64,000 bases of DNA from Myxococcota bacterium (GCA_036149055.1 JAYZQJ010000178.1:1-64000), one strand, 5' to 3'. Numbered from the stretch's first letter, positions 3,759-47,077 are shown. Program-made: numbers and translations. The notes: generated by a model from the letters alone, not told the origin.

Positions 3759-5296
3759 GCCGGCTCCGCCTGCGGCAACAGGATGCGGACCTCGGTGCCC
3801 TCCCCCGGCGCCGAGCGCAGCCAGAGCGCGCCGCCGAGCTGCCGGACCACGCCGAACGCGCTCGACAGGCCGAGCCCGCGGGCGCCTCGATCGCGGTGGG
3901 TGGTGACGACGGGCTCGAGCGCCCGGGCGCGCACCTCCGGCTCCATGCCGTGTCCCTCGTCGCGCACCGTCAACATGGCGTACGATCCCGAGTCTGCGCC
4001 GGGGTAGCTCGTCGCCTCCTCGTCGCCCACCTCGACCCGGCCGGCCCGCACCTCCAGCGCGCCGCCCTCGGGCAGCGCGGCCCGCGCGTTGTCGATGAGG
4101 TCGAGGATGACGCGCTCCAGGCTCGCGCCGTCGGCCTTCACCCGCCCGGTCTCCTCGAGCGCGAAGCGGAGCGCCACCGGCTCGCCCGCCGCCGCGTCGA
4201 AGAGCTCGCGTCGCTCCTCCACGAGGGCCTTCAGGTCGACCAGCTCGATCTCCATCGGCTGCTGACGGCCCACCGCGAGGAGCTGCCGGCAGAGGGACGC
4301 GGCGCGGCGGCTCGCCTCCTCGACCATGCCGAGGTCCGCCTTCATCGACGCCTCGAGGCGAGGCTCGAGCAGCGCGACCTGCGAGAGGACCACGGTCAGG
4401 AGGTTGTTGAAGTCGTGGGCCACGCCGCCCGCGAAGCGGCCCACCGCCTCCATGCGCTCCTGCTCCACCAGCTCGGCCTGCAGCGCCGCCCGCGCCCGCT
4501 CCGACGCCTCGAGCTCGAGGATGCGCTGCCGCAGCTCCTCGTTGCGCCCGCTCAGCTCCTGCTCCGCGTCGCGCACCGCGCGCGCCTCGATCCGGGGGAG
4601 CAGCTGCCCGATCAGCGCCCGGGCCCGGGCGGCGCCGGAGGGCTGCGCGTAGCGCACGGCGAAGGTCACCGCGCGCCCGTCGCGCCGCACGGAGATCTCT
4701 CTCGCGCCCGCGTCGGTGGTGCCCGGCAGCCCCTCGAGGAAGCTCCGGGTGGCCTCGACGAAGAGCGCGGGCAGCTCGGGGCCGGGCGGCGGCTCGAACC
4801 GCGCCTCCACCCGGGTCGGCCCCGCCCGGCGCACCTCGAGGGTGAAGCCACGCAGCAGCACCCCGCCCGGGCCGGCGACGAGGCGACCCATGCCCTGCAG
4901 CACGAGCGCGAGCGGGGCGAACGGGGTGATGGCGACCCGCAAGAACTGGAGCGCCGGCGAGCCGAGCAGCCCGCGCATGCCCTCCCGCACGGCGCCGCCG
5001 TCGACCAGCGGCTCCAGCGCGTCCGCCACCTCGCAGTAGCCCGGCCACGTCCACCAGGTGCGCCGCCCTCGGACCGTCGACGGCGCGAGGCCCGCCGCGC
5101 GGAGCCGACGGTCGACCTCGTCCGGCCCCGCGTGGGCGTCGAGCATCTCGAGCACCGCGCGCGTGACCCGCCAGGACACCTCCTCGGGCGCCTCCTCGCG
5201 ATGATCGAGGTCGCGGGCCGCCTCCACCTCACGGAGGCGGCGGAGCTCGGCCTCGAGCTCCTCCAGCGACCACTCCTCGACGCCTCCGTACGCCAC
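3755..5296 (-). CDS. Sensor histidine kinase, paralogue of the downstream hybrid kinase, no receiver domain
   Basis: VGRFAGGVAHDFNNLLTVV H-box, DLIDNARAALP, DEGHGM, GLGLSSAFG; start inferred at a GTG 7 nt after TATCCT. Confidence 0.8.
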   Translation of the reverse strand: MAYGGVEEWSLEELEAELRRLREVEAARDLDHREEAPEEVSWRVTRAVLEMLDAHAGPDEVDRRLRAAGLAPSTVRGRRTWWTWPGYCEVADALEPLVDGGAVREGMRGLLGSPALQFLRVAITPFAPLALVLQGMGRLVAGPGGVLLRGFTLEVRRAGPTRVEARFEPPPGPELPALFVEATRSFLEGLPGTTDAGAREISVRRDGRAVTFAVRYAQPSGAARARALIGQLLPRIEARAVRDAEQELSGRNEELRQRILELEASERARAALQAELVEQERMEAVGRFAGGVAHDFNNLLTVVLSQVALLEPRLEASMKADLGMVEEASRRAASLCRQLLAVGRQQPMEIELVDLKALVEERRELFDAAAGEPVALRFALEETGRVKADGASLERVILDLIDNARAALPEGGALEVRAGRVEVGDEEATSYPGADSGSYAMLTVRDEGHGMEPEVRARALEPVVTTHRDRGARGLGLSSAFGVVRQLGGALWLRSAPGEGTEVRILLPQAEPA

Positions 5297-5363
5297 CGAC
5301 GCCAGGATACTCGCGATCACCCGCCGCCGTGGACCACCGGACCGGACAGACTTAAGCTGCGGC

Positions 5364-6209
5364 GTGCGAGACGTCACCGAAGCGCTCCTCGCGCTGCTGG
5401 ACGAGGGTGGTCGCGGCGCGCTCGCGACCGTGATCCGATCGAGCGGCTCGACCCCGCAGCAGCCGGGCGCGCGCCTCTTGCTCCTGCCCGACGGCCGCGC
5501 GGTCGGCACCATCGGCGGCGGCGCGATCGAGCACCACGTCATGAGCGAGCTCGAGGCGTGCGTGCGCGACGGCCGCCCGCGCGTCGTGCAGAAGGATCTG
5601 ATCCGCGACCTCGGCATGTGCTGCGGCGGTCGCATGGAGGTCTTCGTGGAGCCCATCGAAGGACGCCCACGCCTGGTCGTCTTCGGCGCCGGTCACGTCG
5701 GCAAGGCGGTGTGCGACGTCGCGCGCGGCCTCGGCTTCCGGCTGGTCGTGGTCGACGACCGGGCGGAGCTGAACGACGAGGCGCGCTTCCCCGGCTGCGA
5801 GCGGGTGGTCGCCGAGCCCGCCGAGTCCGCCGAGCGCGTCGCGCCGACCTCGAGAGACTGGCTGCTCGTGGTCACGCACGATCACCGCCTGGACGAGGAG
5901 GCGGTCGACACCTTCGCGCGCCTCCCCCACGCCTACCTCGGCGTCATCGGCAGCCGGCGCAAGATCTACCGCATCCTCCAGCGCATCCACGCCCGCCGCG
6001 GCCTCCCCTCGCTCGAGCGGGTCTACGCGCCGGTCGGTCTCGACCTCGGCGCGGTCACGCCCGAGGAGATCGCGATCAGCATCGCGGCCGAGCTGGTCGC
6101 GCTGCGGCACGGCGTGGCCGGCGCGCACATGCGCGCGATGGACGACCCGGCGCTCCAGCGGGTGCTCGGCGGCGAGCTCACCCCCGACGCGGCGGCCCGG
6201 ATCGAATAG
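5364..6209 (+). CDS. xdhC: Xanthine dehydrogenase accessory protein XdhC (XdhC/CoxI family)
   Basis: GSTPQQPGARLL, GTIGGGAIE, LGMCCGG, VFGAGHVG, VTHDHRLD, YLGVIGSRRK, APVGLDLGAVTPEEIAISIAAEL. Confidence 0.9.
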   Translation: MRDVTEALLALLDEGGRGALATVIRSSGSTPQQPGARLLLLPDGRAVGTIGGGAIEHHVMSELEACVRDGRPRVVQKDLIRDLGMCCGGRMEVFVEPIEGRPRLVVFGAGHVGKAVCDVARGLGFRLVVVDDRAELNDEARFPGCERVVAEPAESAERVAPTSRDWLLVVTHDHRLDEEAVDTFARLPHAYLGVIGSRRKIYRILQRIHARRGLPSLERVYAPVGLDLGAVTPEEIAISIAAELVALRHGVAGAHMRAMDDPALQRVLGGELTPDAAARIE

Positions 6210-8925
6210 GCTGCACCGCGTGCCCGCACGCCGGGCAGCGCACGTGCACCGGCGGCTCGTGCGTCGGCGCGAAGACCGTCGCGTCGCAGTGCGGGCACCA
6301 CGCGGGCTCGGTCTCACGCACCGGACCGGTCGTCACGCCCACGAGGCCGAGGCTCCGACACAGCCCGCACCGCGTCGTCCGCAGCGGCGTTCCGTCCGGC
6401 AGCGAGTACCGCGCCCCGCACCGCGCGCACCCCGCGTCGGTCGCCCCCTCCGCTGCCTCGCTCTGCGCCCGAGCGATCTGCGCCGCCTCCACCACCATCG
6501 CGAGCGCCGAGGTCCACGCGGGCATCGGCACGCTGGCTTCGAGGACCTCGGTCTCCGGGAGGCGGTCGAGGCGGGCCGTCCGGGGGCGTCGCTCGGGGAG
6601 CCTCAAGCCTTCGCCGTGCCGGTAGTCGGGCTCCTCCTGGAGGGCGCGCGACAGGGCCCGGGCGACCGCCTGATCGGTCCCGAGGGCGTCGAGCCGCTCC
6701 CGCGCGCCCGCGGCATAGTGAAAGTTGCGCCGCCGCAGGGTCCCGTTGATCGGATCGTCCGCCTCGGCGAGCAGCATCGAGAGGTCGCCGCGCAGGGCGC
6801 GCTCGGCGAGCGCGAGCACCGCCTCGGGCGACTCGGTCTCCGGCTGTCGCCACGCGGCGAGCACCTCCACCTCGTCGATCCACCCCGCGGCCCTCACGCC
6901 GGCGAGCGCCATCTCGGCGCGGAAGATCACGTCGGGGCCGAGCGTCAGCGCGGGCTGCGCGTCGAGGTCTCCGAGCGCGGGCGGCGTGGCGAGCGCCGAC
7001 TCCAGCCGCTCGGTAGCGGTGGAGCGGCCCCGCTCGAGCGCGGAGCCCGGGGCTTCGTCCCCCCACGTCACGAGGGCCCCACAGCGCGGCAGCTCGTCGC
7101 TCCTCTCGTCGAACGCGCGCACGAAGCAGAAGGCGGCTCGCTCGGTCGGCGCGCGGACCAGGAGCGCGATCCGGGCGGTCACCCCCGCGGGGACCGCGAT
7201 CGGCCAGACCTCTGCGCCGATCGGCGCGGCGAGCGCGAGCACGGTCTCGATGAGCTGCCTCCCGGAGACCCGGTGGCCGAGCTTCCACGCGCCCCCACGT
7301 GTCCTCGGGATCTCGCCACCGCCCCCGGACAGCCCTGGGGCCGCGATCGGGGCGAGCGGATCCACGTCGTCGTGAGCCCCCGAGAGCGTGATCCTCGGAG
7401 CGGGATCGGCGAGCCCAGATCGTCGGTCGAAGACGGGGCGGTCGATGAGCGCCGCCGCGATCGCCGTCCAGCCGCCGAGGTCCCTCTCCAGCTCGGCGAG
7501 CGCCTCGCTGCCTTCGCCCGTGAACGTGAACTCGCCGGCGGCGACGGCGGCCATCGGGTCGTCGCCGTGCACCACCACGACGTCCCGGATCCCGCGGAGG
7601 GCTCTCGCGACGCCCCGCAGGGTGGCGTCGACCCGGTCGGGCGGCGCCCAGGCGATGAAGCGGCCCTCGGAGCCCGGGAGCCACCCGGCCGAGTAGGCTC
7701 CCGCGGCGGCCAGCTCGACCCGCAGTCGCGTGGTCGGGGCGTTGCCGAGCGGCGCGAGCTGCCGGGTGATCCCGAACAGCCGCCGCTCGATGGCCGGAGC
7801 CTCCTGCCCGCGCGCCAGCCGCGTCACGAGGTGCTCGCGCGCGCCCCGCTCCTTCTCCCACGCCACGTGCGCCGCCAGGCCGCGCAGACCGCGCTTTCGG
7901 CCGTCGATCGCGCGAGCGAGCGCGACCGCCGAACGCCTCCACCGCGTGAGCACGTAGACGTGCATCGTGTACTCCGCGGTCGGCTCCCCCACGAGCGGCA
8001 CGGCCCAGGCCTGCGAGCCCGTCTCCCGGAGCGTCGCGAGGAGCTCCTGAAGCCCCGCTCGCGCGCCGAGACCCCGCCCCTCCCGCTCGACGGTCGGCGC
8101 CCGCCTCCCGGTCCCCACCCGCAGCCCTGGGCGCACCGACTCCGCTGCGGTCTCGGTCTCGGCTGCGGACTCGGTCTCGGCTTCGGTCTCGGTCTCGGCT
8201 TCGGTCTCGGCTTGGGTCTCGGCCTCGGCGACCGAGAGCGCCTCCAGATCGACCGAGAGCGCCTCCCGGCACGCCGCCTCCAGCGCCTCCCTGGCCCTCT
8301 GGATGGCGTCCTCGTCCTCGCTCCCCTCCGAGAGCAGCGCCCGGGCGCGGCTCAGCCGCTCGAGCGCGCCGCCGAGGCGGGTCACGTCGTCCTCCGCGAG
8401 CGCCGCGGCGGCCTCGTGCGCGAACGCCGCCGCCCGCGCCTCCGCCCACCGCCGGATCGCGCCGGCTCGCTCGCCCTCGGCCCGGGCCTTCGCGAGGGCG
8501 TCGGCCCGACCCTGCTCGAGCACCCACTCCGCGTCGCGCACCCTCTCGTCCGCGTCGATCGCTCGCGCCCTCGCGTCCCCGGCCCGCGCCCGGTGCGCCC
8601 GCGCGTCCTCGAGCGTCGGCGCCTCGTGCGCCTCGGTGAGCGCGCTCCGGACCCACCGCGCGATCCGCGGCCGCAGGGCGTCCTTCGCGTCGAACGCCCG
8701 CACCACCTCGCGCGCCGTCCCGGCGAGCTGCTCCGCGTCCTCCACCACCGTGCCGCCGATCCGCACCAGACACAGCGGCCCGCCGCGCGCGTGGGCCAGC
8801 GCGCCGATCAGCCCGGTCGCCGCGTGCAGCCCGGAGCGTCCGACCACCGGCTCGCCCCCGACCCGCTCGATCGCCCCGGGCTCGACCGCGCCGCGCGCGA
8901 ACCACCAACCGTAGCGCGCCCCCAC
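6178..8925 (-). CDS. Large hypothetical protein with helical region, internal domain duplication and C-terminal double zinc ribbon
   Basis: Long ORF in the coding-like frame; ETETEA low-complexity linker; four CxxC pairs at the C-terminus (CARC, CGLC, CPHC, CPAC); start is an estimate. Confidence 0.6.
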   Translation of the reverse strand: MGARYGWWFARGAVEPGAIERVGGEPVVGRSGLHAATGLIGALAHARGGPLCLVRIGGTVVEDAEQLAGTAREVVRAFDAKDALRPRIARWVRSALTEAHEAPTLEDARAHRARAGDARARAIDADERVRDAEWVLEQGRADALAKARAEGERAGAIRRWAEARAAAFAHEAAAALAEDDVTRLGGALERLSRARALLSEGSEDEDAIQRAREALEAACREALSVDLEALSVAEAETQAETEAETETEAETESAAETETAAESVRPGLRVGTGRRAPTVEREGRGLGARAGLQELLATLRETGSQAWAVPLVGEPTAEYTMHVYVLTRWRRSAVALARAIDGRKRGLRGLAAHVAWEKERGAREHLVTRLARGQEAPAIERRLFGITRQLAPLGNAPTTRLRVELAAAGAYSAGWLPGSEGRFIAWAPPDRVDATLRGVARALRGIRDVVVVHGDDPMAAVAAGEFTFTGEGSEALAELERDLGGWTAIAAALIDRPVFDRRSGLADPAPRITLSGAHDDVDPLAPIAAPGLSGGGGEIPRTRGGAWKLGHRVSGRQLIETVLALAAPIGAEVWPIAVPAGVTARIALLVRAPTERAAFCFVRAFDERSDELPRCGALVTWGDEAPGSALERGRSTATERLESALATPPALGDLDAQPALTLGPDVIFRAEMALAGVRAAGWIDEVEVLAAWRQPETESPEAVLALAERALRGDLSMLLAEADDPINGTLRRRNFHYAAGARERLDALGTDQAVARALSRALQEEPDYRHGEGLRLPERRPRTARLDRLPETEVLEASVPMPAWTSALAMVVEAAQIARAQSEAAEGATDAGCARCGARYSLPDGTPLRTTRCGLCRSLGLVGVTTGPVRETEPAWCPHCDATVFAPTHEPPVHVRCPACGHAVQPIRSGPPRRG
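8143..8230. repeat. Hexanucleotide tandem repeat (GGTCTC/GGCTTC) encoding an (E-T/E-A)n linker
   Basis: Sequence ...ggtctcggcttcggtctcggtctcggcttcggtctcggcttgggtctc... Confidence 0.8.
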
Positions 8926-32790: not shown

Positions 32791-33096
32791 TCACTTGCGG
32801 AAGCGGGAGGGGTAGTCACCCGACGCGATCCGACCCTTGAGGTCGCCGTCGTCCGGGTGCAGCTTGAGCGCCTTCTCGGCGAGATCCGCCTCCTGCTCCT
32901 CGTGCTCCGGGTTGGGCAGGCAGCACTCGACCGGACACACCGCCTGACAGGCCTCGTGGTCGTAGAACCCGACACACTCGGTGCAGAGGTCGGGGTCGAT
33001 CACGTAGATCTCCTCGCCCTCGCTGATCGCCTGGTTCGGGCACTCCGGCTCGCAGGCGCCGCAGTTGATGCATTCGTCGGTGATGTAAGTCGACAT
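32791..33096 (-). CDS. YfhL-family 2[4Fe-4S] ferredoxin
   Basis: ITDECINCGACEPECPNQAI...YVIDPDLCTECVGFYDHEACQAVCPVEC. Confidence 0.92.
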   Translation of the reverse strand: MSTYITDECINCGACEPECPNQAISEGEEIYVIDPDLCTECVGFYDHEACQAVCPVECCLPNPEHEEQEADLAEKALKLHPDDGDLKGRIASGDYPSRFRK

Positions 33097-34049: not shown

Positions 34050-35453
34050 CTAGACGGTCGGGAGCCGGACCCGCTTGGGGCGCGGATCGGCGCCGGGCGG
34101 CGGCTCGGGCAGGGTGCCGTCGGCTTCGTAGAGATCGGCCACCAGGTCGTAGGCGGCGGCCTTGGTCACGAACGCCTTGCGCACGTCGCCCGGGCGGGCG
34201 GTGCCGTTGGCGAGGTAGACCTTGCCGTCGATCTCGGGGGCCTGTCCCCACCAGCGGCCCTCGAGGAGCAGCTCGGACTCGTCGCTGATCCCCTCGACCA
34301 GGACCTCGACGTCGCGCCCGACCATCGCCTCCATCTTGCGCTTGGAGATCGGCCGCTGGGCGGCCATCAGCTTTCGGTGGCGCGAGGCCGCGACCTTGGC
34401 CGGGACCTGCGCGTCCATCTCGCCGGCCGCGGTGCCCTCCTCGACCGAGTAACGGAACACGCCGACCCGATCGAACTCGGCCCACCGCACGAAGTCGAGC
34501 AGCTCCTCGAAGTCCGCGTCGGTCTCGCCGGGGTGACCGACGATGAAGGCGGTGCGGAAGACCAGGTCGTCGATCTGGGTGCGCATCCGATCCACCACCC
34601 GCCGCAGCCGCTCGCCGCCGTGCCCGCGCTTCATGCGGCGCAGCATCGCGTCGGACGCGTGCTGGAGCGGCATGTCGACGTAAGGCAGCACCTTCGGGTG
34701 CTCGGCGAGCAGGGTGATCAGCGAGTCCTTGATGGTCTCGGGGTAGAGGTAGAAGAGCCGCACCCAGCGCAGCCCGGGCACCTCGGCCACCGCCTCGGCG
34801 AGCTTCGCGAGATCCGTCCCGTCCTTGAGGTCGCGGCCGTAGGCGATGGTGTCCTGGCTGATCAGGTTGATCTCGACCGTGCCGAGCTCCACCAGGCGCC
34901 GGACCTCCTCGACCACGTCGTCGATCGCGCGGCTGCGCTGCTTCCCGCGGAAGCTGGGGATCGTGCAGAAGGCGCACTGGCGGTTGCAGCCCTCGGCGAT
35001 CTTCACGTAGGCGCTGTGGTGGCCCTGCGAGAGCCGACGCGGATCGGTCGCGCGGAGCGTGTAGTCGGCCGGGTTGCCGACCATCATGCGGGGGGCGCCG
35101 CCCTGGTCGAGGATCGTCCCCAGCTTCAGCATGTCGCTCGAGCCGAGGAAGTGATCGACCTCGGGCATCTCCGAGGCGAGCTCCTCCGGGTAGCGCTGCG
35201 AGAGGCACCCGGCGACGACGAGCTTCTGGCACGAGCCCGTCTGCCGCAGCTCGCCCATCTCGAGGATGGTGTTGACCGACTCCTCCTTCGCCTCGTCGAT
35301 GAACCCGCAGGTGTTCACCACGATGACCTCGGCGTCTTCGGCGCGGTCGACGACGCGGTAGGCCCGCGTGTCCGACACCCCGAGCATCACCTCGGTGTCG
35401 ACCCGGTTCTTGGGGCACCCGAGGCTGATGAAGTGGATGGTCTTCTCGCTCAT
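34050..35453 (-). CDS. rimO: Ribosomal protein S12 methylthiotransferase RimO
   Basis: SLGCPKNRVDTE, NTCGFIDEAKEES, AGCLSQRY, YVKIAEGCNRQCAFCTIP, TRAM domain APEIDG. Confidence 0.95.
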   Translation of the reverse strand: MSEKTIHFISLGCPKNRVDTEVMLGVSDTRAYRVVDRAEDAEVIVVNTCGFIDEAKEESVNTILEMGELRQTGSCQKLVVAGCLSQRYPEELASEMPEVDHFLGSSDMLKLGTILDQGGAPRMMVGNPADYTLRATDPRRLSQGHHSAYVKIAEGCNRQCAFCTIPSFRGKQRSRAIDDVVEEVRRLVELGTVEINLISQDTIAYGRDLKDGTDLAKLAEAVAEVPGLRWVRLFYLYPETIKDSLITLLAEHPKVLPYVDMPLQHASDAMLRRMKRGHGGERLRRVVDRMRTQIDDLVFRTAFIVGHPGETDADFEELLDFVRWAEFDRVGVFRYSVEEGTAAGEMDAQVPAKVAASRHRKLMAAQRPISKRKMEAMVGRDVEVLVEGISDESELLLEGRWWGQAPEIDGKVYLANGTARPGDVRKAFVTKAAAYDLVADLYEADGTLPEPPPGADPRPKRVRLPTV

Positions 35454-35539: not shown

Positions 35540-36610
35540 ATGGGGAGCCGACCGAAGAAGTACGCGCTGGCGATCGAGCTGACGAGCTACTGCAATCAGA
35601 AGTGCGGCTACTGCTACAACGGCTGGCGCGACGACGGAGGCAAGTCGGTGGGCTCCTTGCCGTCGGATCGGCTCCTCGAGCTGGTCGACCGCGCGCTCAC
35701 CGAGGTGGACTTCGACCATGTCACCCTCACCGGCGGCGAGCCCTTCGCGCGGAAGGACGTCTTCGACGTGCTCGACGTCGTGAAGCGCCACAGCAAGCGC
35801 GCCAAGATCATCTCGAACGGCGGCCTCATCACCGACGCGCTCGCGGCGCGGCTCGCGCCGTATCGGCCGTACTTCGTTCAGATCACGCTCAACGGCGTCG
35901 AGAAGGCGACGCACGAGGCGCACGTCGGCGAGGGCCACTGGGAGGTCACGCTCGACGGCATCGAGGCGTGCCGCCGCGCCGGGGTCGCGGTCAGCGGGTG
36001 CGTGGTCGTGACCCGGAAGAACGCCGACCAGGTCGGCGCGATCCTCGATCTCTGGCGCTCCTTCGGCGTGAACGACATCGCGTTGAGCCGGTTCTCTCCC
36101 GCGGGCTACGCCTCGGCGCAGGTCGCGGAGCTGCTCTGCTCGCGCTCGGAGCTGATCGAGGCGCTGCGACAGGCCGACGCGCGCGGGCGCGAGCACGGCA
36201 CGCGCATCCAGGTGACGATGCCGACGCCGCAGTGCGTGATCGAGCACGCGGACTACCCGCACGTCACGTTCGGTGGCTGCCCCATCGGCACCGAGGCCCA
36301 GGAGCTCGCGCTCGGGCCGGACGGGGGCCTGCGCAACTGCACGCTGCACGAGGAGGTCATCGGGAACGCGGTCGACCACTCGTTCGCCGAGCTGGTCACC
36401 CGGCCCGCGGTCACCGCGTATCGCGACGTGACCGACGAGTTCTGCGCGCCGTGCCCGCTCAAGTCGAGCTGCCTCGGGGGCTGCGGCGCGGCCGCGCACT
36501 GGACGCTCGGCGAGGGGCGCCGCCTCGATCCCTTCGTCGCCCAGCACGTCGACGAGGGGTTCCGCCAGCGCCTCGCGAAGCAGCGCGCGCAGCTCCCCGT
36601 GCTGCCATGA
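35540..36610 (+). CDS. Radical SAM/SPASM-domain protein (PqqE/AlbA-like clade)
   Basis: ELTSYCNQKCGYC, TGGEPF, ISNG; SPASM Cys pattern GCPIG...NC...CAPCPLKSSCLGGC. Confidence 0.88.
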   Translation: MGSRPKKYALAIELTSYCNQKCGYCYNGWRDDGGKSVGSLPSDRLLELVDRALTEVDFDHVTLTGGEPFARKDVFDVLDVVKRHSKRAKIISNGGLITDALAARLAPYRPYFVQITLNGVEKATHEAHVGEGHWEVTLDGIEACRRAGVAVSGCVVVTRKNADQVGAILDLWRSFGVNDIALSRFSPAGYASAQVAELLCSRSELIEALRQADARGREHGTRIQVTMPTPQCVIEHADYPHVTFGGCPIGTEAQELALGPDGGLRNCTLHEEVIGNAVDHSFAELVTRPAVTAYRDVTDEFCAPCPLKSSCLGGCGAAAHWTLGEGRRLDPFVAQHVDEGFRQRLAKQRAQLPVLP

Positions 36611-38787
36611 CCCGGGTGCTCCTGCTCTGGCCGGGCTGCGAGGGGCCGGCGAGCGGCAACTTCGGGGTGCCGCAGCTCGTCCTGATGGCGACCCACGCCC
36701 GCGCGAAGACCGGCGCGCACATCGAGATCGTCGACCTCGCGGCGGAGCGATGCTTCGGGCCGGTCGACGTGGCGAAGCTCTTCGACGGCTGGGACGTCAT
36801 CGCCTTCAGCGTCTACTCGAGCTTCGACTTCCTGAAGTGCATGGCCCTCGCGGAGCTCGCCCGGGAGCTGAACCCGGACGCGCTCATCGCCGCCGGCGGC
36901 TACCACGCGAGCGCGCGCCCCACCGAGCACGTCTTCGACGGATCGCCGTTCGACGTGTGCGTGGTCGGGGAGGGCGAGAACGCGCTCGTGAAGATGATCG
37001 AGTCGGTCGAGGGCGGCGCGCCGCTCCGCGAGACGATCCTCGCCAGCGATCCGATCCTCGACCTCGACACGCTCCCGCCGAGCGACTGGACCTTCCTCGA
37101 TCGCTACAAGCCGATCGCGCGCAAGATGGCGTCGCAGGCCCAGGTGTATCTCTCCCGCGGCTGCCCGTTCGACTGCGCCTTCTGCATGGAGCGCGCGAAG
37201 AGGGAGGTGAGCTGGCGCAGCCTGTCGGTCGAGCGCGCGGTGCAAGAGATCGTGTCGCTCCACGCCTACCTCGATCTTCGAGGCTGGACCCTCTACGTCG
37301 CCGACGCGCTCTTCGGCATGAAGAAGAGCTGGCGGCGGGAGCTCCTCGCGGCGCTCGCGCGGGAGCGGGTGCCCGTCGACAAGCTCTGGCTGCTCATCCG
37401 GGTGGACCTCGTCGAGGACGAGGACCTGCGGCTCTTCGCGGAGGCGAACTGCGGGCTCGGCTTCGGCCTCGAGTCGGGCGACCCGCAGCTGCTCGCGACC
37501 ATTCGCAAGGCGGGCCGGCTCGACACCTACCTCGAGCGCATGAAGGAGGTCAGCGCCTGGGCGCGCGAGCACGACGTGCCGTGGGGCGCGAACATCATCT
37601 GCGGCCACCCGGGCGAGACGCCGGGCACGATGGAGCGGAGCGCGGCCTACATGCGCGAGCTCTTCCTCGACCCGAAGGGAGTCACCGGCTTCCTGAGCGT
37701 CGACCCCTTCCGGCTCTACCCGGGCTCGCCGATCGACGCCGAGCGGGGGCAGTGGGAGCAGCGCTTCGGGACCCGCTTCCATCGGCCCTCGTGGTGGGAC
37801 GACGGCGATCAGGCGTTCCTCGCGGAGTGGGTCGACCCGAGCGCCGACCTCGACTGGCGGGAGCGCACCCGGCTGCAGCACGCGCTCTACGGGCCCGTGC
37901 TCGCGCGCGTCGGAGAGAACTTCGTCTACCGCGGTCCGGCGCGTGACTACTTCCTGCGCGCGGTGCGGGACCAGGTGCAGCAGAGCGAGCCGCGAACCCG
38001 CGCGCACTACCTCGGCCGCTACTACGCGTGGCTCCGCTACCTGGGCTTCCGGGAGAAGGCGGAGCGGGTGCGCCGCGAGGACGCCGAGCTGCGGGACGTC
38101 GCGCGTCGGCGCCGCAAGGCGTGGCGCCCGATCGTGGCCGAGCGCGCGAAGCTCCCCGTCGACGACGCGTGGCTCGACCTCGTGGAGCGCGTCCCGCGCG
38201 AGCTCTTCGTGCCCGTCGACCAGGTGGCGGAGTCGACCCGCGACGAGGCCGTCCCTCTCGACGCCAGCGGTGCGGCCACCGTCAGCGCCATGCACGCCTA
38301 CGCCCGCTCCTTCTCCCTGCTGGGCGTGGAGCCGGGCATGACCGTGCTCGACCTGGGAGGCGGCAGCGGCTACGGCGCCGCGATCCTCGCCGAGCGCGTC
38401 GGCGCGGAGGGCCGCGTCGTCACCGTCGAGATCGACCCCGCCCTCACCGCGCGCGCCGCCGAGCTCTGCCCCGCCCAGGTCACCTGCGTCACCGGCGACG
38501 CCCTCGACGTCGACGCGTGGGGCGTCGACCCAGAGACGATCGACGCCGTCACCGTAGGCTTCGCCCTCCCCGAGCTCCCGCCCGCCTGGCTCGCCCGCCT
38601 CCGCCCCGGCGTCCGCATCCTCGCCCCGATCGGCGAAGGCGACACCCAGACCCTCCAACGCGTCACCGTCGGCGCCGGCGAAGAGACCTTCGAGCCCGTC
38701 CGCTACGTCCCCCTCCGCCGCGAAGCGCCCCCCGCGCCCAAGCCCCCGAGATCACGCGCCAAACGCCGCCTGCCCCTTCAAGACTGA
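36607..38787 (+). CDS. B12-binding radical SAM protein fused to a C-terminal protein-L-isoaspartate O-methyltransferase (PIMT/PCMT)-like domain
   Basis: B12 domain (AGGYHAS, VVGEGE), SRGCPFDCAFC, GLESG, GHPGET, YPGSP; then VPRELFVP, VLDLGGGSGYGAAILA, VTVEID, LRPG..LAPIG, VRYVPL; ATGA overlap with the SPASM gene. Confidence 0.88.
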   Translation: MTRVLLLWPGCEGPASGNFGVPQLVLMATHARAKTGAHIEIVDLAAERCFGPVDVAKLFDGWDVIAFSVYSSFDFLKCMALAELARELNPDALIAAGGYHASARPTEHVFDGSPFDVCVVGEGENALVKMIESVEGGAPLRETILASDPILDLDTLPPSDWTFLDRYKPIARKMASQAQVYLSRGCPFDCAFCMERAKREVSWRSLSVERAVQEIVSLHAYLDLRGWTLYVADALFGMKKSWRRELLAALARERVPVDKLWLLIRVDLVEDEDLRLFAEANCGLGFGLESGDPQLLATIRKAGRLDTYLERMKEVSAWAREHDVPWGANIICGHPGETPGTMERSAAYMRELFLDPKGVTGFLSVDPFRLYPGSPIDAERGQWEQRFGTRFHRPSWWDDGDQAFLAEWVDPSADLDWRERTRLQHALYGPVLARVGENFVYRGPARDYFLRAVRDQVQQSEPRTRAHYLGRYYAWLRYLGFREKAERVRREDAELRDVARRRRKAWRPIVAERAKLPVDDAWLDLVERVPRELFVPVDQVAESTRDEAVPLDASGAATVSAMHAYARSFSLLGVEPGMTVLDLGGGSGYGAAILAERVGAEGRVVTVEIDPALTARAAELCPAQVTCVTGDALDVDAWGVDPETIDAVTVGFALPELPPAWLARLRPGVRILAPIGEGDTQTLQRVTVGAGEETFEPVRYVPLRREAPPAPKPPRSRAKRRLPLQD

Positions 38788-38806
38788 GTCCCCGACCCGG
38801 GACTTT

Positions 38807-39068
38807 GGGACGGAGTTTCCTTGTTGCCGTCCCGCTGGCCTCTCCTCGAACCGGTCCCCATTGACGGACACCGGGACGGAGTTTCCTTGTTGCCTCCCGC
38901 GCGTCCCTCGGTTGAGACCCCTCGAATCCGTGCAGGACTGCGTCGAAGTCCCAACGAGTTCCCGGGCGTAGGCAAGGTGGGCAACAAGGAAACTCCGTCC
39001 CATGTACCTAGATCTTGGAGGGGGCTCGGGCTCGCGCCGCCGACTCGGCAACAAGGAAACTCCGTCCC
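38807..39068. repeat. Cluster of four identical 22-bp repeats GGGACGGAGTTTCCTTGTTGCC (two direct then two inverted), type A
   Basis: Copies at 38807-38828 and 38873-38894 (+), 38980-39001 and 39047-39068 (-); between convergent genes. Confidence 0.9.
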
Positions 39069-39074
39069 CGGGTT

Positions 39075-39938
39075 CTAGATTCTGGACGCGCGTGCGAGGA
39101 GGGTGGGGCGCTCGGCGGGGCGCTCGACGAGGGCGCGTCGGGTGGTCTCGTCGCAGAGGCCGAGCTCGGTGGCGGGGGCGAGCACGCTCGTGAGGTCGAG
39201 GGCGGCGAGCCAGGTCGCGTGGGCGTCGCGCAGCTTCGTCGAGGCGCGCTCGAGGGTCGTGGCGACCCGGGTGAGCGCCGCCCACTCGGCTCGGACGTAG
39301 CGGTGATCCTCCGCGGCGCGGCTCGCCTCGCGCACTTCGGCTTCGTGCATCGCGAGCACCGCGGGGCGCTCGGCGGCCAGCGCGCCCCAGTCGTCGGGCA
39401 CGCCCACCAGGATGCGGCGCGCGAAGGCCCGGCCGCGCGAGCCCAGGGCCCAGACGATCTCGACGTCCGCGTCGCGCAGCGCGCTCGAGAGGCGGCGCGC
39501 CTCTTCGAGCGGCTCGCGCAGGCGCTCCAGCCGGGCGGCGCACTCCGCGAGGAGCTCTCCGTGCCAGCACCCCGCGTACGCCGGCGCGGCGAGGGACACA
39601 CACGCCCGGAAGAGCTCGACCGGCTCGGAGCTCCGGACGCGCGCGAGCAGGCTCGGCGCCGAGACGTCACCCTCGCCCAGCTCGGTCATCGCCAGCGCCG
39701 CCGTGGCCCGCAGCTGGGCGATGTCACCGTAGAGCTCGGGCGTCGACTGCAAGATCAGCTCGCCCATCGACGCGATCACCGCCGCGTCTCGAGCGAGCGG
39801 CGCCCGCGCCGCCTCGGGCAAGCTCCGCTCGCTCCACGCCAGGTAGCGCGGGTCGTCCAGACGCTCCGGGCCCGGCAGCGGGAGATGCGCGAGCGCGTGG
39901 AGACAGAGCTGGGTGTAGTCGTTGGCGACGCGGAGCAA
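39075..39938 (-). CDS. Hypothetical protein, possibly a degenerate zincin-like fold
   Basis: Starts immediately after the peptide gene stop (TTG inferred); GRAF...ILVG...VLAMHEAEV...RAEWAAL. Confidence 0.55.
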   Translation of the reverse strand: MLRVANDYTQLCLHALAHLPLPGPERLDDPRYLAWSERSLPEAARAPLARDAAVIASMGELILQSTPELYGDIAQLRATAALAMTELGEGDVSAPSLLARVRSSEPVELFRACVSLAAPAYAGCWHGELLAECAARLERLREPLEEARRLSSALRDADVEIVWALGSRGRAFARRILVGVPDDWGALAAERPAVLAMHEAEVREASRAAEDHRYVRAEWAALTRVATTLERASTKLRDAHATWLAALDLTSVLAPATELGLCDETTRRALVERPAERPTLLARASRI

Positions 39939-39940
39939 GG

Positions 39941-40186
39941 TCAGGGCGCTTCGGGGTCTTCGGGTTCCGCGGGTGGCGTCTCGGGCTCCTCGGGTGAAAC
40001 GGGCGAGAGGCACGGCATCGGCGCTGGCCCGGGATCGCTCTCCTGGATCGGAGCGCTCAGGCAGGGGCCCGGCGGCGGGTCACGATCGTCGCAACCCGCA
40101 GCGACGGCGATGCCCGAGAGCGCCAGGCCGATCAGCCGGCTCCGGCGCGCCAGGATGGCGGCGCGATCTTCGTCGTCCGAGGCCAC
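39941..40186 (-). CDS. Small Asp/Pro-rich (lipo)peptide with two PCLS motifs; candidate precursor/substrate
   Basis: 81 aa; ARRSR + hydrophobic stretch + AAGC lipobox; GPCLSAP and MPCLSPV; TAGCGT 6 nt before the GTG. Confidence 0.7.
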   Translation of the reverse strand: MASDDEDRAAILARRSRLIGLALSGIAVAAGCDDRDPPPGPCLSAPIQESDPGPAPMPCLSPVSPEEPETPPAEPEDPEAP

Positions 40187-40218
40187 CCGCCGACGCTACG
40201 CGCACCGGCCCGCTCGGG

Positions 40219-41712
40219 TCAAAGCTCCGGCCACGCGTCGACGCTCGCGCGGGCCTCCGCGTACCAGCGCCGCCACGCCTCGCGCACGCGACGATCGTCC
40301 GGGGGCAGCGTGGCCATCCACCGCCGCTCGCCTTCCTCGACCGCCCGCCGCATCGTCTCGCGATCGTCCTCGGCCATCACCCGCGCCGCCGCGCCGAAGA
40401 CCGCCGCCACCCGCCGCATCTCGCGCCCGCTCACTCGATCGAAGCGGTCTCGCGTGGTGTGGTAGGCGTCGTCGGTGAAGTGCCACCCGAGCACCGCGGG
40501 CAGCTGGCGGTCGAGGAACGGCACGTGGTCGCTCCCGCCCTCGAACGGGTTGGTGCGCCACCGCCACGGCCCGTCGAGCGCCTCCACCGCGCGCGCGCTC
40601 TCGAAGAGCAAGTCGTTGAGGAAGTGACCGCGGAGGTCGGCCTCGTCGACCTCGCCCGCGCCCCACTCGGTGTGCGCGTCGGGTGGACGGAGCCAGATCG
40701 CGCCCGGGTCCGGCATGCGCTCGATGAGGAACGGCGCGCCGGTCTCAGCAGGATCCTCGCCGACCATGTCGAGCACCAGGCCCGCGGCCACCGGCGCGTC
40801 GGTCTCCGCGAGCCACGCGCGCGAGACCTCGATCTCCTGGCCCCAGAGGAAGATCAGCGTGCGCCGGGCTGGCCGCCCCTGGAGCGCGACCGCGAGCTCG
40901 GCCAGCGCCGCGACCCCGCTCGCGTTGTCGTTGGCGCCGGGCTCGTCCGCGTGGGCCACGAACACGATCGCGCCCGCCGCCGGATCGGTCCCGGGGACGC
41001 GCGCCTCGACCGCCGTCGCTCGCGACTCGCCGACCGCCACGTCGATCTCGACCTCGACCCGCGCGTCCGTCACCGCGGCGAGCGCGCGGTAGTCCGCGTC
41101 GGAGAGCGAGAAGCCGATCCCTCCCGGCACGTAGCCGAACTGCGCGCTCTCCGGGTACCGCTCCGGCTGATGATAGGGCTCGAGGTTCCGCACCAGCAGC
41201 CCCGCCGCCCCGTTCGGCTCGACCAGCTCGGCGTACAGGGCGCGCGGCGATCCCACGCCGAGGATGAGCTTGCCCCGCGCGTCGGCCCCGCGTCGGACCG
41301 CGTCGGCGTGTACGACGTCGAGCTCACCGCGAAAGGACTCCGAGCCCACGAGCAGCGCCGCGCGATCCACCCCGGTCTCGTCCTCGAACGCGATCAGCGC
41401 GCGGCCGTCCAGCGCGAGCCGCGCCGACCGGGGCGTCCACGTGGGGCGGGCCGGTCCGAGCTGGATCCGGCGCACCGCCTCGAGCCCACCGCGCCGCAGC
41501 TCGGTCTCCACGCGCTCGAGGGTCTTCTGGTAGCCCTCGTTGCCGCGCACGCGGAAGAAGCGATCGACGTAGCGCACGGTGTCGAGCGCGGCCTCGGCGC
41601 GAAAGGCGGCGTGGACGTCGCGCGCGTGCCCCGCGACGCGATCGGAGGGAGCGGCCGAGGGGGCTCCCGGGCCGGCGCACGCGAGCAAGAGGAGCGGCCA
41701 GATCCATCGCAC
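40219..41712 (-). CDS. M28 family metallo-aminopeptidase (lipoprotein, PA-like insert)
   Basis: AHADEPGANDNASG, WGQEIE, LDMVG, SDHVPF, YHTTRD; signal LLLAC. Confidence 0.85.
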   Translation of the reverse strand: MRWIWPLLLLACAGPGAPSAAPSDRVAGHARDVHAAFRAEAALDTVRYVDRFFRVRGNEGYQKTLERVETELRRGGLEAVRRIQLGPARPTWTPRSARLALDGRALIAFEDETGVDRAALLVGSESFRGELDVVHADAVRRGADARGKLILGVGSPRALYAELVEPNGAAGLLVRNLEPYHQPERYPESAQFGYVPGGIGFSLSDADYRALAAVTDARVEVEIDVAVGESRATAVEARVPGTDPAAGAIVFVAHADEPGANDNASGVAALAELAVALQGRPARRTLIFLWGQEIEVSRAWLAETDAPVAAGLVLDMVGEDPAETGAPFLIERMPDPGAIWLRPPDAHTEWGAGEVDEADLRGHFLNDLLFESARAVEALDGPWRWRTNPFEGGSDHVPFLDRQLPAVLGWHFTDDAYHTTRDRFDRVSGREMRRVAAVFGAAARVMAEDDRETMRRAVEEGERRWMATLPPDDRRVREAWRRWYAEARASVDAWPEL

Positions 41713-41776
41713 GCCGCGAGCTTGCCACGCTTTGTCGCTTCCCGCGGGGGCCCGCGTCTGCTAACTCCGCCGCGCG

Positions 41777-42631
41777 ATGGCCAAGAAGAAGCGCAAGAAG
41801 GACAAGAAGCGGAAGAAGAAGATCGCTTCGACCGCCGACCGTCACGACCTGTATCAGCGCAGCGTCCAGAACCCCGACTTCGAGGTCGAGCTCGCCGACA
41901 GCTACTTCCGGCGCCGCGTGGGTCGGAAGCCGCTGACGCTGCTCGAGGACTTCTGCGGCACCGCGCTCCTCTGCGCCGAGTGGGTCAAGTCGGACCCGAA
42001 CCGCGAGGCCACCGGGGTCGACATCTCCGGCGAGGTGCTCGGGTGGGGCCGCGAGCACAACATCGTGCCGCTGGGCGACGACGCGGCGCGGGTGAACCTG
42101 GTCGAGGGCGACGTGCGCACCGTGCACGACCAGAAGTTCGACGTGCTGATGGCGCTCAACTACTCGTACTTCTGCTTCCAGGATCGCCCGACGCTCCGCG
42201 GCTACTTCGAGGCGGCGCGCCAGAACCTCGCCGAGGACGGGCTCCTCTTCCTCGATCTCTTCGGCGGCTGGGAGTCGGTGCAGGAGCTCGAGGAGGAGCG
42301 GGACTGCGAGGACTTCTGGTACATCTGGCACCAGGCCAAGTACGACCCGATCCAGAGCCACTTCCTCGGCCACATCCACTTCCGGTTCAAAGACGGAAGC
42401 AAGCTGAAGAAGGCCTTCACCTACGACTGGCGCCTCTGGAACATCCGCGAGCTGCGCGAGCTGCTCGAGGAGGCCGGCTTCTCGCACACCGAGGTGCTGT
42501 GGGAAGACGAGGACGAGGACGGCGAGGGCAACGGCGTCTACCGCCCGCGCGAGAAGGTCGGCAACGACCCCGGCTGGAACGCCTACATCCTCGCCAGCGT
42601 CGACACGCCGAAGAAGCTCAAGAAGGGATAG
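41777..42631 (+). CDS. Class I SAM-dependent methyltransferase
   Basis: EDFCGTA motif I, GVDIS, EGDV, FDVLMALNYS, GLLFLD, LLEEAGF. Confidence 0.8.
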   Translation: MAKKKRKKDKKRKKKIASTADRHDLYQRSVQNPDFEVELADSYFRRRVGRKPLTLLEDFCGTALLCAEWVKSDPNREATGVDISGEVLGWGREHNIVPLGDDAARVNLVEGDVRTVHDQKFDVLMALNYSYFCFQDRPTLRGYFEAARQNLAEDGLLFLDLFGGWESVQELEEERDCEDFWYIWHQAKYDPIQSHFLGHIHFRFKDGSKLKKAFTYDWRLWNIRELRELLEEAGFSHTEVLWEDEDEDGEGNGVYRPREKVGNDPGWNAYILASVDTPKKLKKG

Positions 42632-46466: not shown

Positions 46467-47077
46467 TGGGACGGAGTTTCCTTGTTTCCGAGCGCGCGTG
46501 GTTTCCGCTCGGCGGTCGAGGCCCCGGCGCCCCGGGACGGAGTTTCTTCGTTTCCCAGTGCGCGCTCCTGGCCGCCCTCGCGCTCAGCGGCTGCGCGCGC
46601 AACGCCATCTTCGAGCTGGAGCTCGACCTCCCCGCGCAGCCCGCCGGCCCCGCGCTCTACGCCGTCGTCCAGGCGCGCCCGGTCGGCGGCGCGGACTGGG
46701 ACACCCTCGACGCGCTCCCGGGCGTGCCCCTCTGCGCGCGCGCCAGCGAGGGCCCCTGCGACGACCGGGTGCTCGACCCCGCCTGCGCGGCCGTCCTCAG
46801 CGTCGTAGCCGACGAGTCGGAGCTCGACGTCCCCCTCGAGGTCCGCGTCCGCTACTGCGAAGACCCGAGCTGCGCCACGGACCCCGCCGCGCCCGAGCAT
46901 CTGATCGACGTAGAGCGCCCCTTCTATCGAGGCCGATACACCCAGGCCCGCGTCTGCCTCGACGACGTCGCCCCCGGCCGGGAGACCCTCGAGCGCTGCG
47001 AAGTCCGCTGCCGCGAAGGCACCGTCTCCAGCTACTGCCGCCTCGACGGCACCCACTTCTGCGAGCCCCCGAACTAG
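46466..47077 (+). CDS. Cys-containing lipoprotein whose signal peptide carries two in-frame repeat copies
   Basis: TGATG coupling to the upstream gene; MGRSFLVS...PGRSFFVSQCALLAALALSGC. Confidence 0.7.
   Translation: MGRSFLVSERAWFPLGGRGPGAPGRSFFVSQCALLAALALSGCARNAIFELELDLPAQPAGPALYAVVQARPVGGADWDTLDALPGVPLCARASEGPCDDRVLDPACAAVLSVVADESELDVPLEVRVRYCEDPSCATDPAAPEHLIDVERPFYRGRYTQARVCLDDVAPGRETLERCEVRCREGTVSSYCRLDGTHFCEPPN
46468..46555 (+). repeat. Two degenerate type-A repeats (GGGACGGAGTTTCYTYGTTTCC), 66 bp apart, inside a CDS
   Basis: 46468-46489 gggacggagtttccttgtttcc; 46534-46555 gggacggagtttcttcgtttcc. Confidence 0.8.

Follow-up and report, generated by a model that had tools for sequence, protein, structure and literature searches.

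A Myxococcota locus pairing two radical SAM enzymes with Cys-Leu motif proteins: a candidate system for modifying envelope proteins

The window analysed here is a 64,000-nucleotide stretch of DNA from a Myxococcota bacterium (GCA_036149055.1 JAYZQJ010000178.1:1-64000), and the subject is a group of genes at 35540..42631 in which two radical S-adenosylmethionine (rSAM) enzymes lie near a small protein with Pro-Cys-Leu-Ser (PCLS) motifs. An original prediction, made from the sequence of this region, had proposed that the enzymes act on the PCLS peptide in the manner of a pathway for a peptide made on ribosomes and then post-translationally modified (RiPP). The locus is real, and its core consists of four genes, encoding a SPASM rSAM enzyme, a fusion of a B12-dependent rSAM enzyme with a protein isoaspartate methyltransferase (PIMT) domain, an 81-amino acid (aa) lipoprotein precursor and a 287-aa protein. 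These genes and the elements within the precursor are as follows.

35540..36610, plus strand: radical SAM/SPASM enzyme, 356 aa, without an N-terminal RiPP recognition element (RRE); candidate Cys-Leu oxidase or cross-linker (PF04055 over cut-off)
36607..38787, plus strand: B12-binding, radical SAM, helical linker and PIMT-like methyltransferase fusion, 726 aa (Pfam, model and Foldseek)
39075..39938, minus strand: 287-aa protein of no known family with a putative zincin/HExxH-like fold; partner in subtype A (locus and genome profiles)
39941..40186, minus strand: 81-aa precursor with leader/signal peptide, lipobox Cys32 and two PxPCLS motifs in Pro/acidic linkers
40118..40168, minus strand: leader inside the precursor signal peptide, residues 7-23, consensus DRxAILARRxRFxAxAL (family alignment)
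40055..40072, minus strand: target motif 1, PGPCLS, with Cys42 (sequence and family logo)
40004..40021, minus strand: target motif 2, PMPCLS, with Cys59 (sequence and family logo)

The predicted ATGA overlap of the SPASM gene with the B12-rSAM gene was verified at 36607-36610. The predicted protein on the opposite strand also exists, with its start at the TTG at 39938 and a length of 287 aa rather than 312, which matches that of its 97%-identical database twin P0001. Two PCLS motifs are present in the 81-aa peptide as described, but a lipoprotein-type signal peptide ending at Cys32 had been overlooked. The proposed shared substrate, the PCLS peptide, looks more like an exported (lipo)protein than like a RiPP core destined for release. 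No transporter or RRE/PqqD gene is visible at the locus, as had been noted, and none recurs among the neighbours in 80 homologous loci; an exported (lipo)protein as substrate would account for the missing dedicated transporter.

Co-inheritance, target motif and recognition helices

Comparison across loci and genomes showed the co-inheritance of the genes, the target site (by its conservation), two alternative recognition helices, the portability of the leader and the intact catalytic motifs. For this, 80 loci holding a homologue of the B12 enzyme were retrieved (from records labelled Polyangiaceae, Sandaracinaceae, Nannocystaceae, other Myxococcota and, loosely, (delta)proteobacteria), and an even sample of 401 Myxococcota genomes was profiled. 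Both sets bear out the suggestion of one conserved unit made up of the rSAM pair, the PCLS protein and the 287-aa protein. The SPASM gene lies beside the B12 gene in 78/80 loci, and profile searches place a 287-aa protein in 43/80 and a leader-bearing Cys-Leu precursor in 55/80, so that the rSAM pair decisively does occur with a PCLS peptide, where the original prediction had allowed that it might never do so with any small open reading frame (ORF). When only loci with 5 kb or more of flank at each end are counted, SPASM is found in 48/48, the precursor in 38/48 and the 287-aa protein in 29/48. Gene order is variable: in 28/80 loci the precursor is placed between the two rSAM genes, and in 22/43 it sits immediately upstream of the gene for the 287-aa protein. 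Both precursor and 287-aa protein are missing from 23/80 loci, many of which are on short contigs, and for loci without a precursor 10/10 tested genomes hold 1-9 precursors elsewhere (nine of the ten full-flank cases, L087 being left out, together with L106). Beyond lineage synteny and promiscuous domains, no further recurrent neighbour (transporter, protease or RRE) was found by crude ORF calling, which misses ORFs shorter than 100 aa.

Among the 401 genomes, 49 match the B12 enzyme: 20 closely (subtype A, with one enzyme split across two contigs), 28 more distantly (subtype B) and one remotely, the last without a PIMT domain. The split into subtypes rests on a gap in profile scores and on pairwise identity; over residues 1-455, mean identity is 62% within A and 68% within B vs. 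40% between them (maximum 45%; 85 + 10 rows). The 287-aa protein is present in exactly 20/401 genomes, the same 20 that encode a subtype-A B12 enzyme. Within families the distribution is patchy yet matched for enzyme and partner alike (1/2 genomes in family f1, 8/29 in f2), and a same-family genome that is 100% complete (G355) has no match to the B12 enzyme, the 287-aa protein or either of the recognition sequences described below (leader and follower). Two outlying arrangements were also seen. In L131 (G230:C11 ~1252300-1253600) the 287-aa gene and a precursor lie together, ~25 kb from the rSAM pair, and in L138 (G007:C165) a remote B12-rSAM homologue lies in a fetched 10 kb from which PIMT, SPASM partner and precursor are absent.

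The precursors point to a Cys-Leu dipeptide as the target site. In 105 distinct precursors, 362/377 non-lipobox Cys precede Leu, compared with a background rate of 7.8% in long ORFs of the source genome; as the precursors were chosen for having one CL, discounting one per precursor leaves 257/272. The lipobox Cys is followed by Leu in 1/105 precursors. The motif logo is P(83%)-x-[P68/V15/A13]-C-L-[SKEDR]-[VP]-[AP]-P, in which only Cys and Leu are invariant, and 1-9 copies per precursor are set within Pro/Ala/Asp/Gly linkers. The lipoprotein signal is assigned by pattern only, with a basic n-region, a hydrophobic h-region and the Cys mostly 15-21 residues after RR. Five precursors are encoded by the source genome, four of them outside the locus, including one weak match. 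The precursor logo has no conserved cleavage site flanking the motif, nor was a recurrent protease found at the loci; only signal-peptide removal is implied, and unlinked proteases may exist. No NCBIfam precursor model reached its cut-off on 9 precursor ORFs, and none did on the 287-aa partner. Loci of Sandaracinaceae have tandem precursor arrays (at least 8 in L073 at ~4900-8800, some identical; also L064, L068, L070, L078 and L082), and in these arrays the motif often lies right at the lipobox (ACVCLS).

Conversion of Asp to aspartimide or isoAsp, which the original prediction had assigned to the PIMT domain, is poorly supported by these alignments. No Asp is conserved near the motif (at most 17% at every position from -5 to +6), and 64/105 precursors have no Asp within 3 residues of any CL; DG pairs number 101 vs. 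79 expected. The C-terminal PAMT domain is absent, and the PIMT domain is degenerate in all 19 subtype-B loci fetched: SAM motif I is intact in 83/84 subtype-A rows but in 0/19 subtype-B loci.

Recognition appears to reside in a sequence separate from the variable core, as leader and follower are conserved and essentially confined to enzyme-bearing genomes. The leader is found at E<=1.2e-6 in 16/401 genomes, all of subtype A and with up to 11 copies each, and the other 22 genomes listed for it reach only E>=6.5e-4. Its signal peptide carries a twin-Arg (usual spacing RRxxF) that fits a TatFind-like pattern in 38/102 cases; the RRxFL-type Tat motif is absent from subtype-B precursors. In 19/19 fetched subtype-B loci, the rSAM pair is beside GPCL-repeat lipoproteins that have no leader and end in a conserved helix pair, and 126/142 Cys of these precursors precede Leu. 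This C-terminal follower is matched at E<1e-4 in 26/401 genomes, of which 25 are among the 28 subtype-B genomes and none is of subtype A; 19 of the follower-matched subtype-B genomes are training genomes. Two subtype-B loci match the 287-aa profile weakly, and a divergent 287-aa-like partner may be present there. Homology of leader and follower was considered and set aside, their similarity being weak.

Other features of subtype B were noted in passing. Among enzyme sequences, the follower profile scores best on the opening helix of the degenerate PIMT domain in the B12 enzymes of L120 and L122-L128 (residues ~500-523, 3-9 bits); mimicry of the follower by this helix, or a common origin, is a weak possibility. 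In many subtype-B precursors the signal is doubled, with a first LTAC-type Cys, a second hydrophobic stretch and a second Cys (L112, L116-L118, L120, L121, L124, L125 and L127-L129).

The leader is also found on proteins encoded away from the cassette. Of the 60 regions fetched around such matches, the first 20 were selected for a long frame or a weaker score, and the other 40 held further matches. Leader matches above 15 bits number 62. Enzyme-bearing genomes supply 59 of them, with the motif in 56/59; the matches from enzyme-less genomes are all weak and have the motif in 0/3. The cargo comprises small repeat proteins, helical lipoproteins, helical lipoproteins with an OmpA domain, and TPR-PEGA proteins with a probable barrel. 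A lipobox-like Cys is present in 54/59 leader-bearing proteins, and the signal peptide of TPR-PEGA cargo has no lipobox; further leader-bearing cargo ends in what we take to be a MYXO-CTERM-like tail. In the helical, helical plus OmpA and TPR-PEGA classes, one or two PxPCL motifs lie ~195-215 residues downstream, and own-genome homologues of the cargo have the motif in 0/24 PEGA ORFs and 0/25 OmpA ORFs. The non-motif Cys of large cargo are even in number in 15/15 proteins (about four independent families), which leaves the motif Cys as the unpaired one. Judging by this distribution, the leader would be a portable tag on unrelated envelope proteins. Three leader-bearing ORFs (L142, L151 and L180) have no Cys-Leu motif; two of them end shortly past the signal, perhaps as broken copies.

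The enzymes and the 287-aa protein

The SPASM enzyme is over the cut-off for PF04055 and just under it for PF13186 (19 bits vs. 21.5). Its closest solved sequence is PqqE. It scores below the equivalog cut-offs of PqqE (85.7 vs. 381), SbtM (52.5 vs. 350), MftC and the sacti- and ranthipeptide maturases, and among the 25 families listed, out of 65, neither rSAM enzyme meets an NCBIfam cut-off (best 97 bits vs. 400). The CxxxCxxC motif (C18/C22/C25) is conserved, seven C-terminal Cys are invariant in 91/91 homologues, and position 330, the usual last ligand position, is Asp or Glu. Together the seven Cys and Asp/Glu330 would serve eight sites, and sequence alone cannot tell which cluster is open. 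In sacti- and ranthipeptide synthases, an open site on auxiliary cluster 1 binds the substrate Cys (PMC10177961; here and below, papers cited by PMC number are represented by partial texts). A profile scan of the locus proteins found no RRE/PqqD.

The B12 enzyme is over the cut-offs for PF02310 (39.6 vs. 32.1), PF04055 (54.1 vs. 29.5) and PCMT. Its predicted model is a single unit (predicted local distance difference test, pLDDT, 94.5; predicted template modelling score, pTM, 0.90) with an all-helical linker, for which Foldseek returns TsrM, CysS, MgmA and TokK; the PIMT domain leads to housekeeping PIMTs. Matches to class B B12-rSAM enzymes have E about 1e-16 to 1e-18 at 16-19% identity. In the YSS[FY]D loop after strand 3, Phe/Tyr73 aligns with Trp76 of TokK across a one-residue gap, with Ser72 as an alternative lower-face residue; TokK-type methylases have a hydrophobic, non-coordinating residue beneath the cobalt. 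The subtype-A PIMT domain retains S560/A561/H563 in 84/84 rows, and the protein ends just after the PIMT core, with TIGR04188 covered over 17-246 of 363 and TIGR04364 over 27-181 of 394 positions. The source genome encodes a B12-dependent MetH, which makes the use of cobalamin plausible.

The 287-aa family has 396 representatives and no known domain. Residues R170, G179, H198, E199 and E218 are near-invariant, with H198 and E199 each in 160/161 sequences and Val at position 202 in 155/161, giving HExxV in which the second His of HExxH is absent. The best fold match is the ChlB HExxH protein 8s5f (Z 5.2, root-mean-square deviation 5.2, 162 residues aligned), followed by zincins, with Z at background level; the Foldseek E value is 0.87. 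Pfam, NCBIfam, PDB sequence and ESM Atlas searches yielded no usable name for the protein, and no fold match reached Z>=8. Prediction of a complex of SPASM enzyme, 287-aa protein and leader gave no answer (median 0.41, compared with 0.58 for a control in which SPASM was replaced) and is not evidence. In one database protein, P0137 (899 aa), the B12 enzyme is fused to an eroded PIMT domain and a 287-aa domain.

A proposed route, its rivals and its relatives

Taken together, we consider it probable that the locus specifies a system acting in the cytoplasm on the Cys-Leu motifs of Myxococcota envelope proteins, which it would modify before export, and not a released RiPP. As the co-distribution suggests, a substrate would be recognised via a short helix outside the modified site, which in subtype A would be a leader built into the signal peptide (DRxAILARRxRF[IV]AxAL) and in subtype B a C-terminal follower (R..IL.R...G.LP.DV..RL). 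At each P-x-[PVA]-C-L motif the SPASM enzyme would then carry out a radical oxidation, where conservation indicates the site and the chemistry is conjecture. By analogy with known enzymes, our first choice of product is a short thioether ring joining Cys-S to a Leu carbon, which is credible but clearly short of an even chance; a thiooxazole formed from Cys, as made by SbtM, is a somewhat unlikely outcome, and other products share what is left. The B12 enzyme would C-methylate the same motif, most simply on Leu, and we lean modestly towards such methylation. The least secure step concerns subtype A only, where the PIMT domain and the 287-aa protein might add a further modification or hold the leader; PIMT intactness and the 287-aa protein co-vary across subtypes. 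Judging from the signals, the protein would finally leave by normal signal-peptide exit, mostly lipidated at the lipobox Cys, and keep its modified motifs. Motifs that are retained after export and lipidation make a modified envelope protein, not a released peptide, the expected product. Motifs number 1-9 in small repeat proteins and 1-2, placed in a linker, in large folded proteins; a motif could be a metal-binding site or an attachment handle, of which the handle better suits single-motif cargo. A bolder formulation, to which we give slightly less than an even chance, is a phylum-wide, RiPP-like tagging system in which a signal-peptide or C-terminal helix routes lipoproteins, OmpA-domain proteins and barrels through the two rSAM enzymes. 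This would yield a methylated Cys-Leu cross-link or heterocycle acting as an anchor or metal site, with the zincin-fold family as the leader reader.

Several findings have to be set against the proposed modification of envelope proteins. All of the chemical steps are inferred. The pattern of seven Cys and an Asp in SPASM enzymes fits thioether and non-thioether enzymes alike, and neither enzyme here has an RRE-like element, judged from model secondary structure (the SPASM-enzyme domain begins at residue 8). Three of the 59 leader matches in enzyme-bearing genomes have no motif. The leader model misses 4/20 subtype-A genomes, yet one of these, G058, has a leader-bearing precursor at its locus, and one follower match (G211, 88% complete, 630 contigs) comes without an enzyme match. 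The similarity of leader and follower is weak (8 columns, probability 9%). Finally, the profile models were built from enzyme-adjacent loci, and related genomes do not count as independent, so there is some circularity in the positive matches and it is the absences that carry weight.

The most familiar alternative is a classical RiPP, in which PCLS cores would be cross-linked, C-methylated and converted to aspartimide or isoAsp, excised by a peptidase such as the neighbouring M28 enzyme, and released. Multi-core precursors with a leader or follower are what such a pathway would use, both rSAM classes are known to act on RiPPs, the PIMT domain is intact in subtype A, HEXXH-type enzymes can cleave precursors (PMC12636437), and the fold of the 287-aa protein is putatively zincin-like. 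However, neither a peptidase nor a transporter recurs in the 80 loci, the motif has no conserved flanking cleavage site, and excision of single motifs from the linkers of large folded proteins would split them. The lack of a conserved Asp and of the C-terminal PAMT domain and the lipobox-like Cys of most leader-bearing proteins also argue against release, and we regard this explanation as quite unlikely. The unpaired motif Cys in folded cargo could instead receive a small prosthetic group (a metabolite or lipid) that the rSAM enzymes build and the 287-aa protein or PIMT domain attaches, in which case the motif would not be a radical substrate. Single-site cargo does resemble a carrier or anchor site, and the small-molecule enzymes TsrM, CysS and TokK are among the top structural matches of the B12 enzyme. 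Against this, no gene that could supply a substrate recurs in the 80 loci, and subtype-B loci consist of two rSAM enzymes and precursors only. In addition, the invariant Leu suggests that the peptide itself enters the active site, and the nearest solved relative of the SPASM enzyme, PqqE, is a peptide maturase. A prosthetic group therefore seems unlikely. It is also conceivable, if very improbable, that the leader and the PCL motif have a role in export, in sorting or in disulfide pairing, with the rSAM pair acting elsewhere and the association reflecting shared ancestry. The leader lies within a twin-Arg signal peptide, and some loci lack both precursor and 287-aa protein, many of these on short contigs. 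Shared ancestry does not readily explain why the precursor so often sits between the two rSAM genes, why presence is patchy within families yet matched, or why each enzyme subtype goes with its own recognition helix while the same xCL motif is kept.

The modification of envelope proteins favoured here has relatives among known systems. Bufferins, or EGKCG oxazolins, likewise have Cys motifs, often repeated, that are modified before export; some of their precursors carry lipoprotein signals or are fused to larger domains, they need no dedicated transporter, and their function is metal binding (PMC12452194). They differ in using a multinuclear non-haem iron oxidase (MNIO, DUF692), where the present system has two radical SAM enzymes, an xCL motif, either a follower or a conserved leader built into the signal peptide, and cargo that is unrelated and dispersed. 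No DUF692 enzyme was matched on the locus proteins or found among recurrent neighbours. The enzyme anSME acts on the sulfatase motif. It offers a parallel in that the motif Cys of whole proteins is modified, and the thio(seleno)oxazole synthase SbtM (TIGR04082) is a SPASM rSAM enzyme acting on the Cys of a short motif (PMC9204691). The SbtM motif is Gly-Cys and not Cys-Leu, and SbtM has no B12-rSAM-PIMT partner. In enteropeptin sactipeptides, a six-membered thioether ring joins Cys to an adjacent residue within Pro-rich flanks (PMC12395415); there, the acceptor precedes Cys and the peptide is released, whereas here the invariant neighbour follows Cys in an exported protein.

The B12 enzyme shares B12-binding and rSAM domains with an intact CxxxCxxC with class B B12-rSAM methylases (TokK, CysS, TsrM, MgmA, ApyD and PoyC-type TIGR03975), but does not reach their family cut-offs and has a fused PIMT domain; non-methylase B12 rSAM enzymes exist as well (PMC13331322). 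RiPP aspartyl O-methyltransferases (OlvS-type PAMT, TIGR04188, TIGR04364) have the same PIMT fold (TM 0.82-0.84) with the SAM motif and TxSAxH intact in subtype A. The C-terminal PAMT domain shared by those enzymes (PMC11285071) is absent as an extension here, the domain is nearer to housekeeping PIMTs, no substrate Asp is conserved, and subtype B is degenerate. For the 287-aa protein, the top fold match is to alpha-ketoglutarate HExxH oxygenases (ChlBH, which is fused to an rSAM enzyme, and PflC; PMC12636437), from which, as from zincins, it differs by HExxV, a Glu 20 residues after the His and the absent second His. With regard to Haft-type repeat systems such as ACGX, motif, phylum and partners differ (TIGR04340, 84.9 vs. 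400). In these and in Bacteroidota TIGR04133/TIGR04134, a SPASM rSAM enzyme reportedly goes together with a substrate that is a small lipoprotein or has a repeat motif.

Both the superfamilies of the enzymes and the logic of modification followed by export are already known, and the protein-modification system itself is apparently undescribed. The original prediction recognised no described cluster with this combination, and we likewise found no family model or paper for a two-rSAM Cys-Leu system in the literature searched, including the available parts of PMC8939145, PMC12710340 and PMC8436480; genome-mining supplements may list these enzymes. What emerges is an uncharacterised two-rSAM system in 48/401 sampled Myxococcota genomes for which a substrate motif and recognition sequence have been identified, with subtype B as a natural minimal version and with context gained for the ~400-representative family of the 287-aa protein, which has no known domain. 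Should the tag work at a distance of 200 residues from the leader in folded cargo, it would bridge RiPP logic and protein modification, and the system would point to an unknown myxobacterial envelope feature and offer a portable tool for site-specific protein modification.

Neighbouring genes and the gap repeat

Three further features lie within the region and are judged to be outside the system.

38806..39073, no strand: four REP-like (repetitive extragenic palindromic) repeat copies between the convergent genes; genome-wide, not system-specific
40219..41712, minus strand: M28 peptidase lipoprotein, neighbour
41777..42631, plus strand: class I methyltransferase, neighbour

The M28 peptidase and the divergent class I methyltransferase are real genes, but their suggested membership did not survive comparison: 0/80 homologous loci carry either, and each is syntenic only in a same-genus genome. 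A peptidase query, run without a positive control of its own, was unmatched in 5/5 other genomes, four of them system-bearing. For the methyltransferase, the system-less G355 has a copy, and none was found in the system-bearing G230. RimO (34050-35453, over cut-off) and the SPASM gene are divergent, and a ferredoxin-like ORF lies close by at 32791-33069; RimO was also rejected as a member, as a true orthologue adjoins only in L031 and the same-genus genome, so that linkage is confined to close relatives. Contigs from RNA runs span the entire region including these bystander genes, where DNA carry-over is possible, and show nothing specific. A scan for promoters and terminators was uninformative.

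The repeat-filled gap between the convergent genes is 287 bp (38788-39074) and not 290, and it does hold four copies of a 21-22 nt repeat, two per strand. A role as a regulatory part of the system was ruled out, the repeat being genome-wide (29 exact copies; 63 at no more than 2 mismatches on 25 contigs). The 63 copies form 31 inverted clusters, most commonly +- and ++--, and the window has another at 46469-46555. Elsewhere in the source genome (G000, C7 ~122400-123200), its one PqqD is encoded as a PqqD/RRE gene beside another rSAM gene, in a separate RiPP-like locus.

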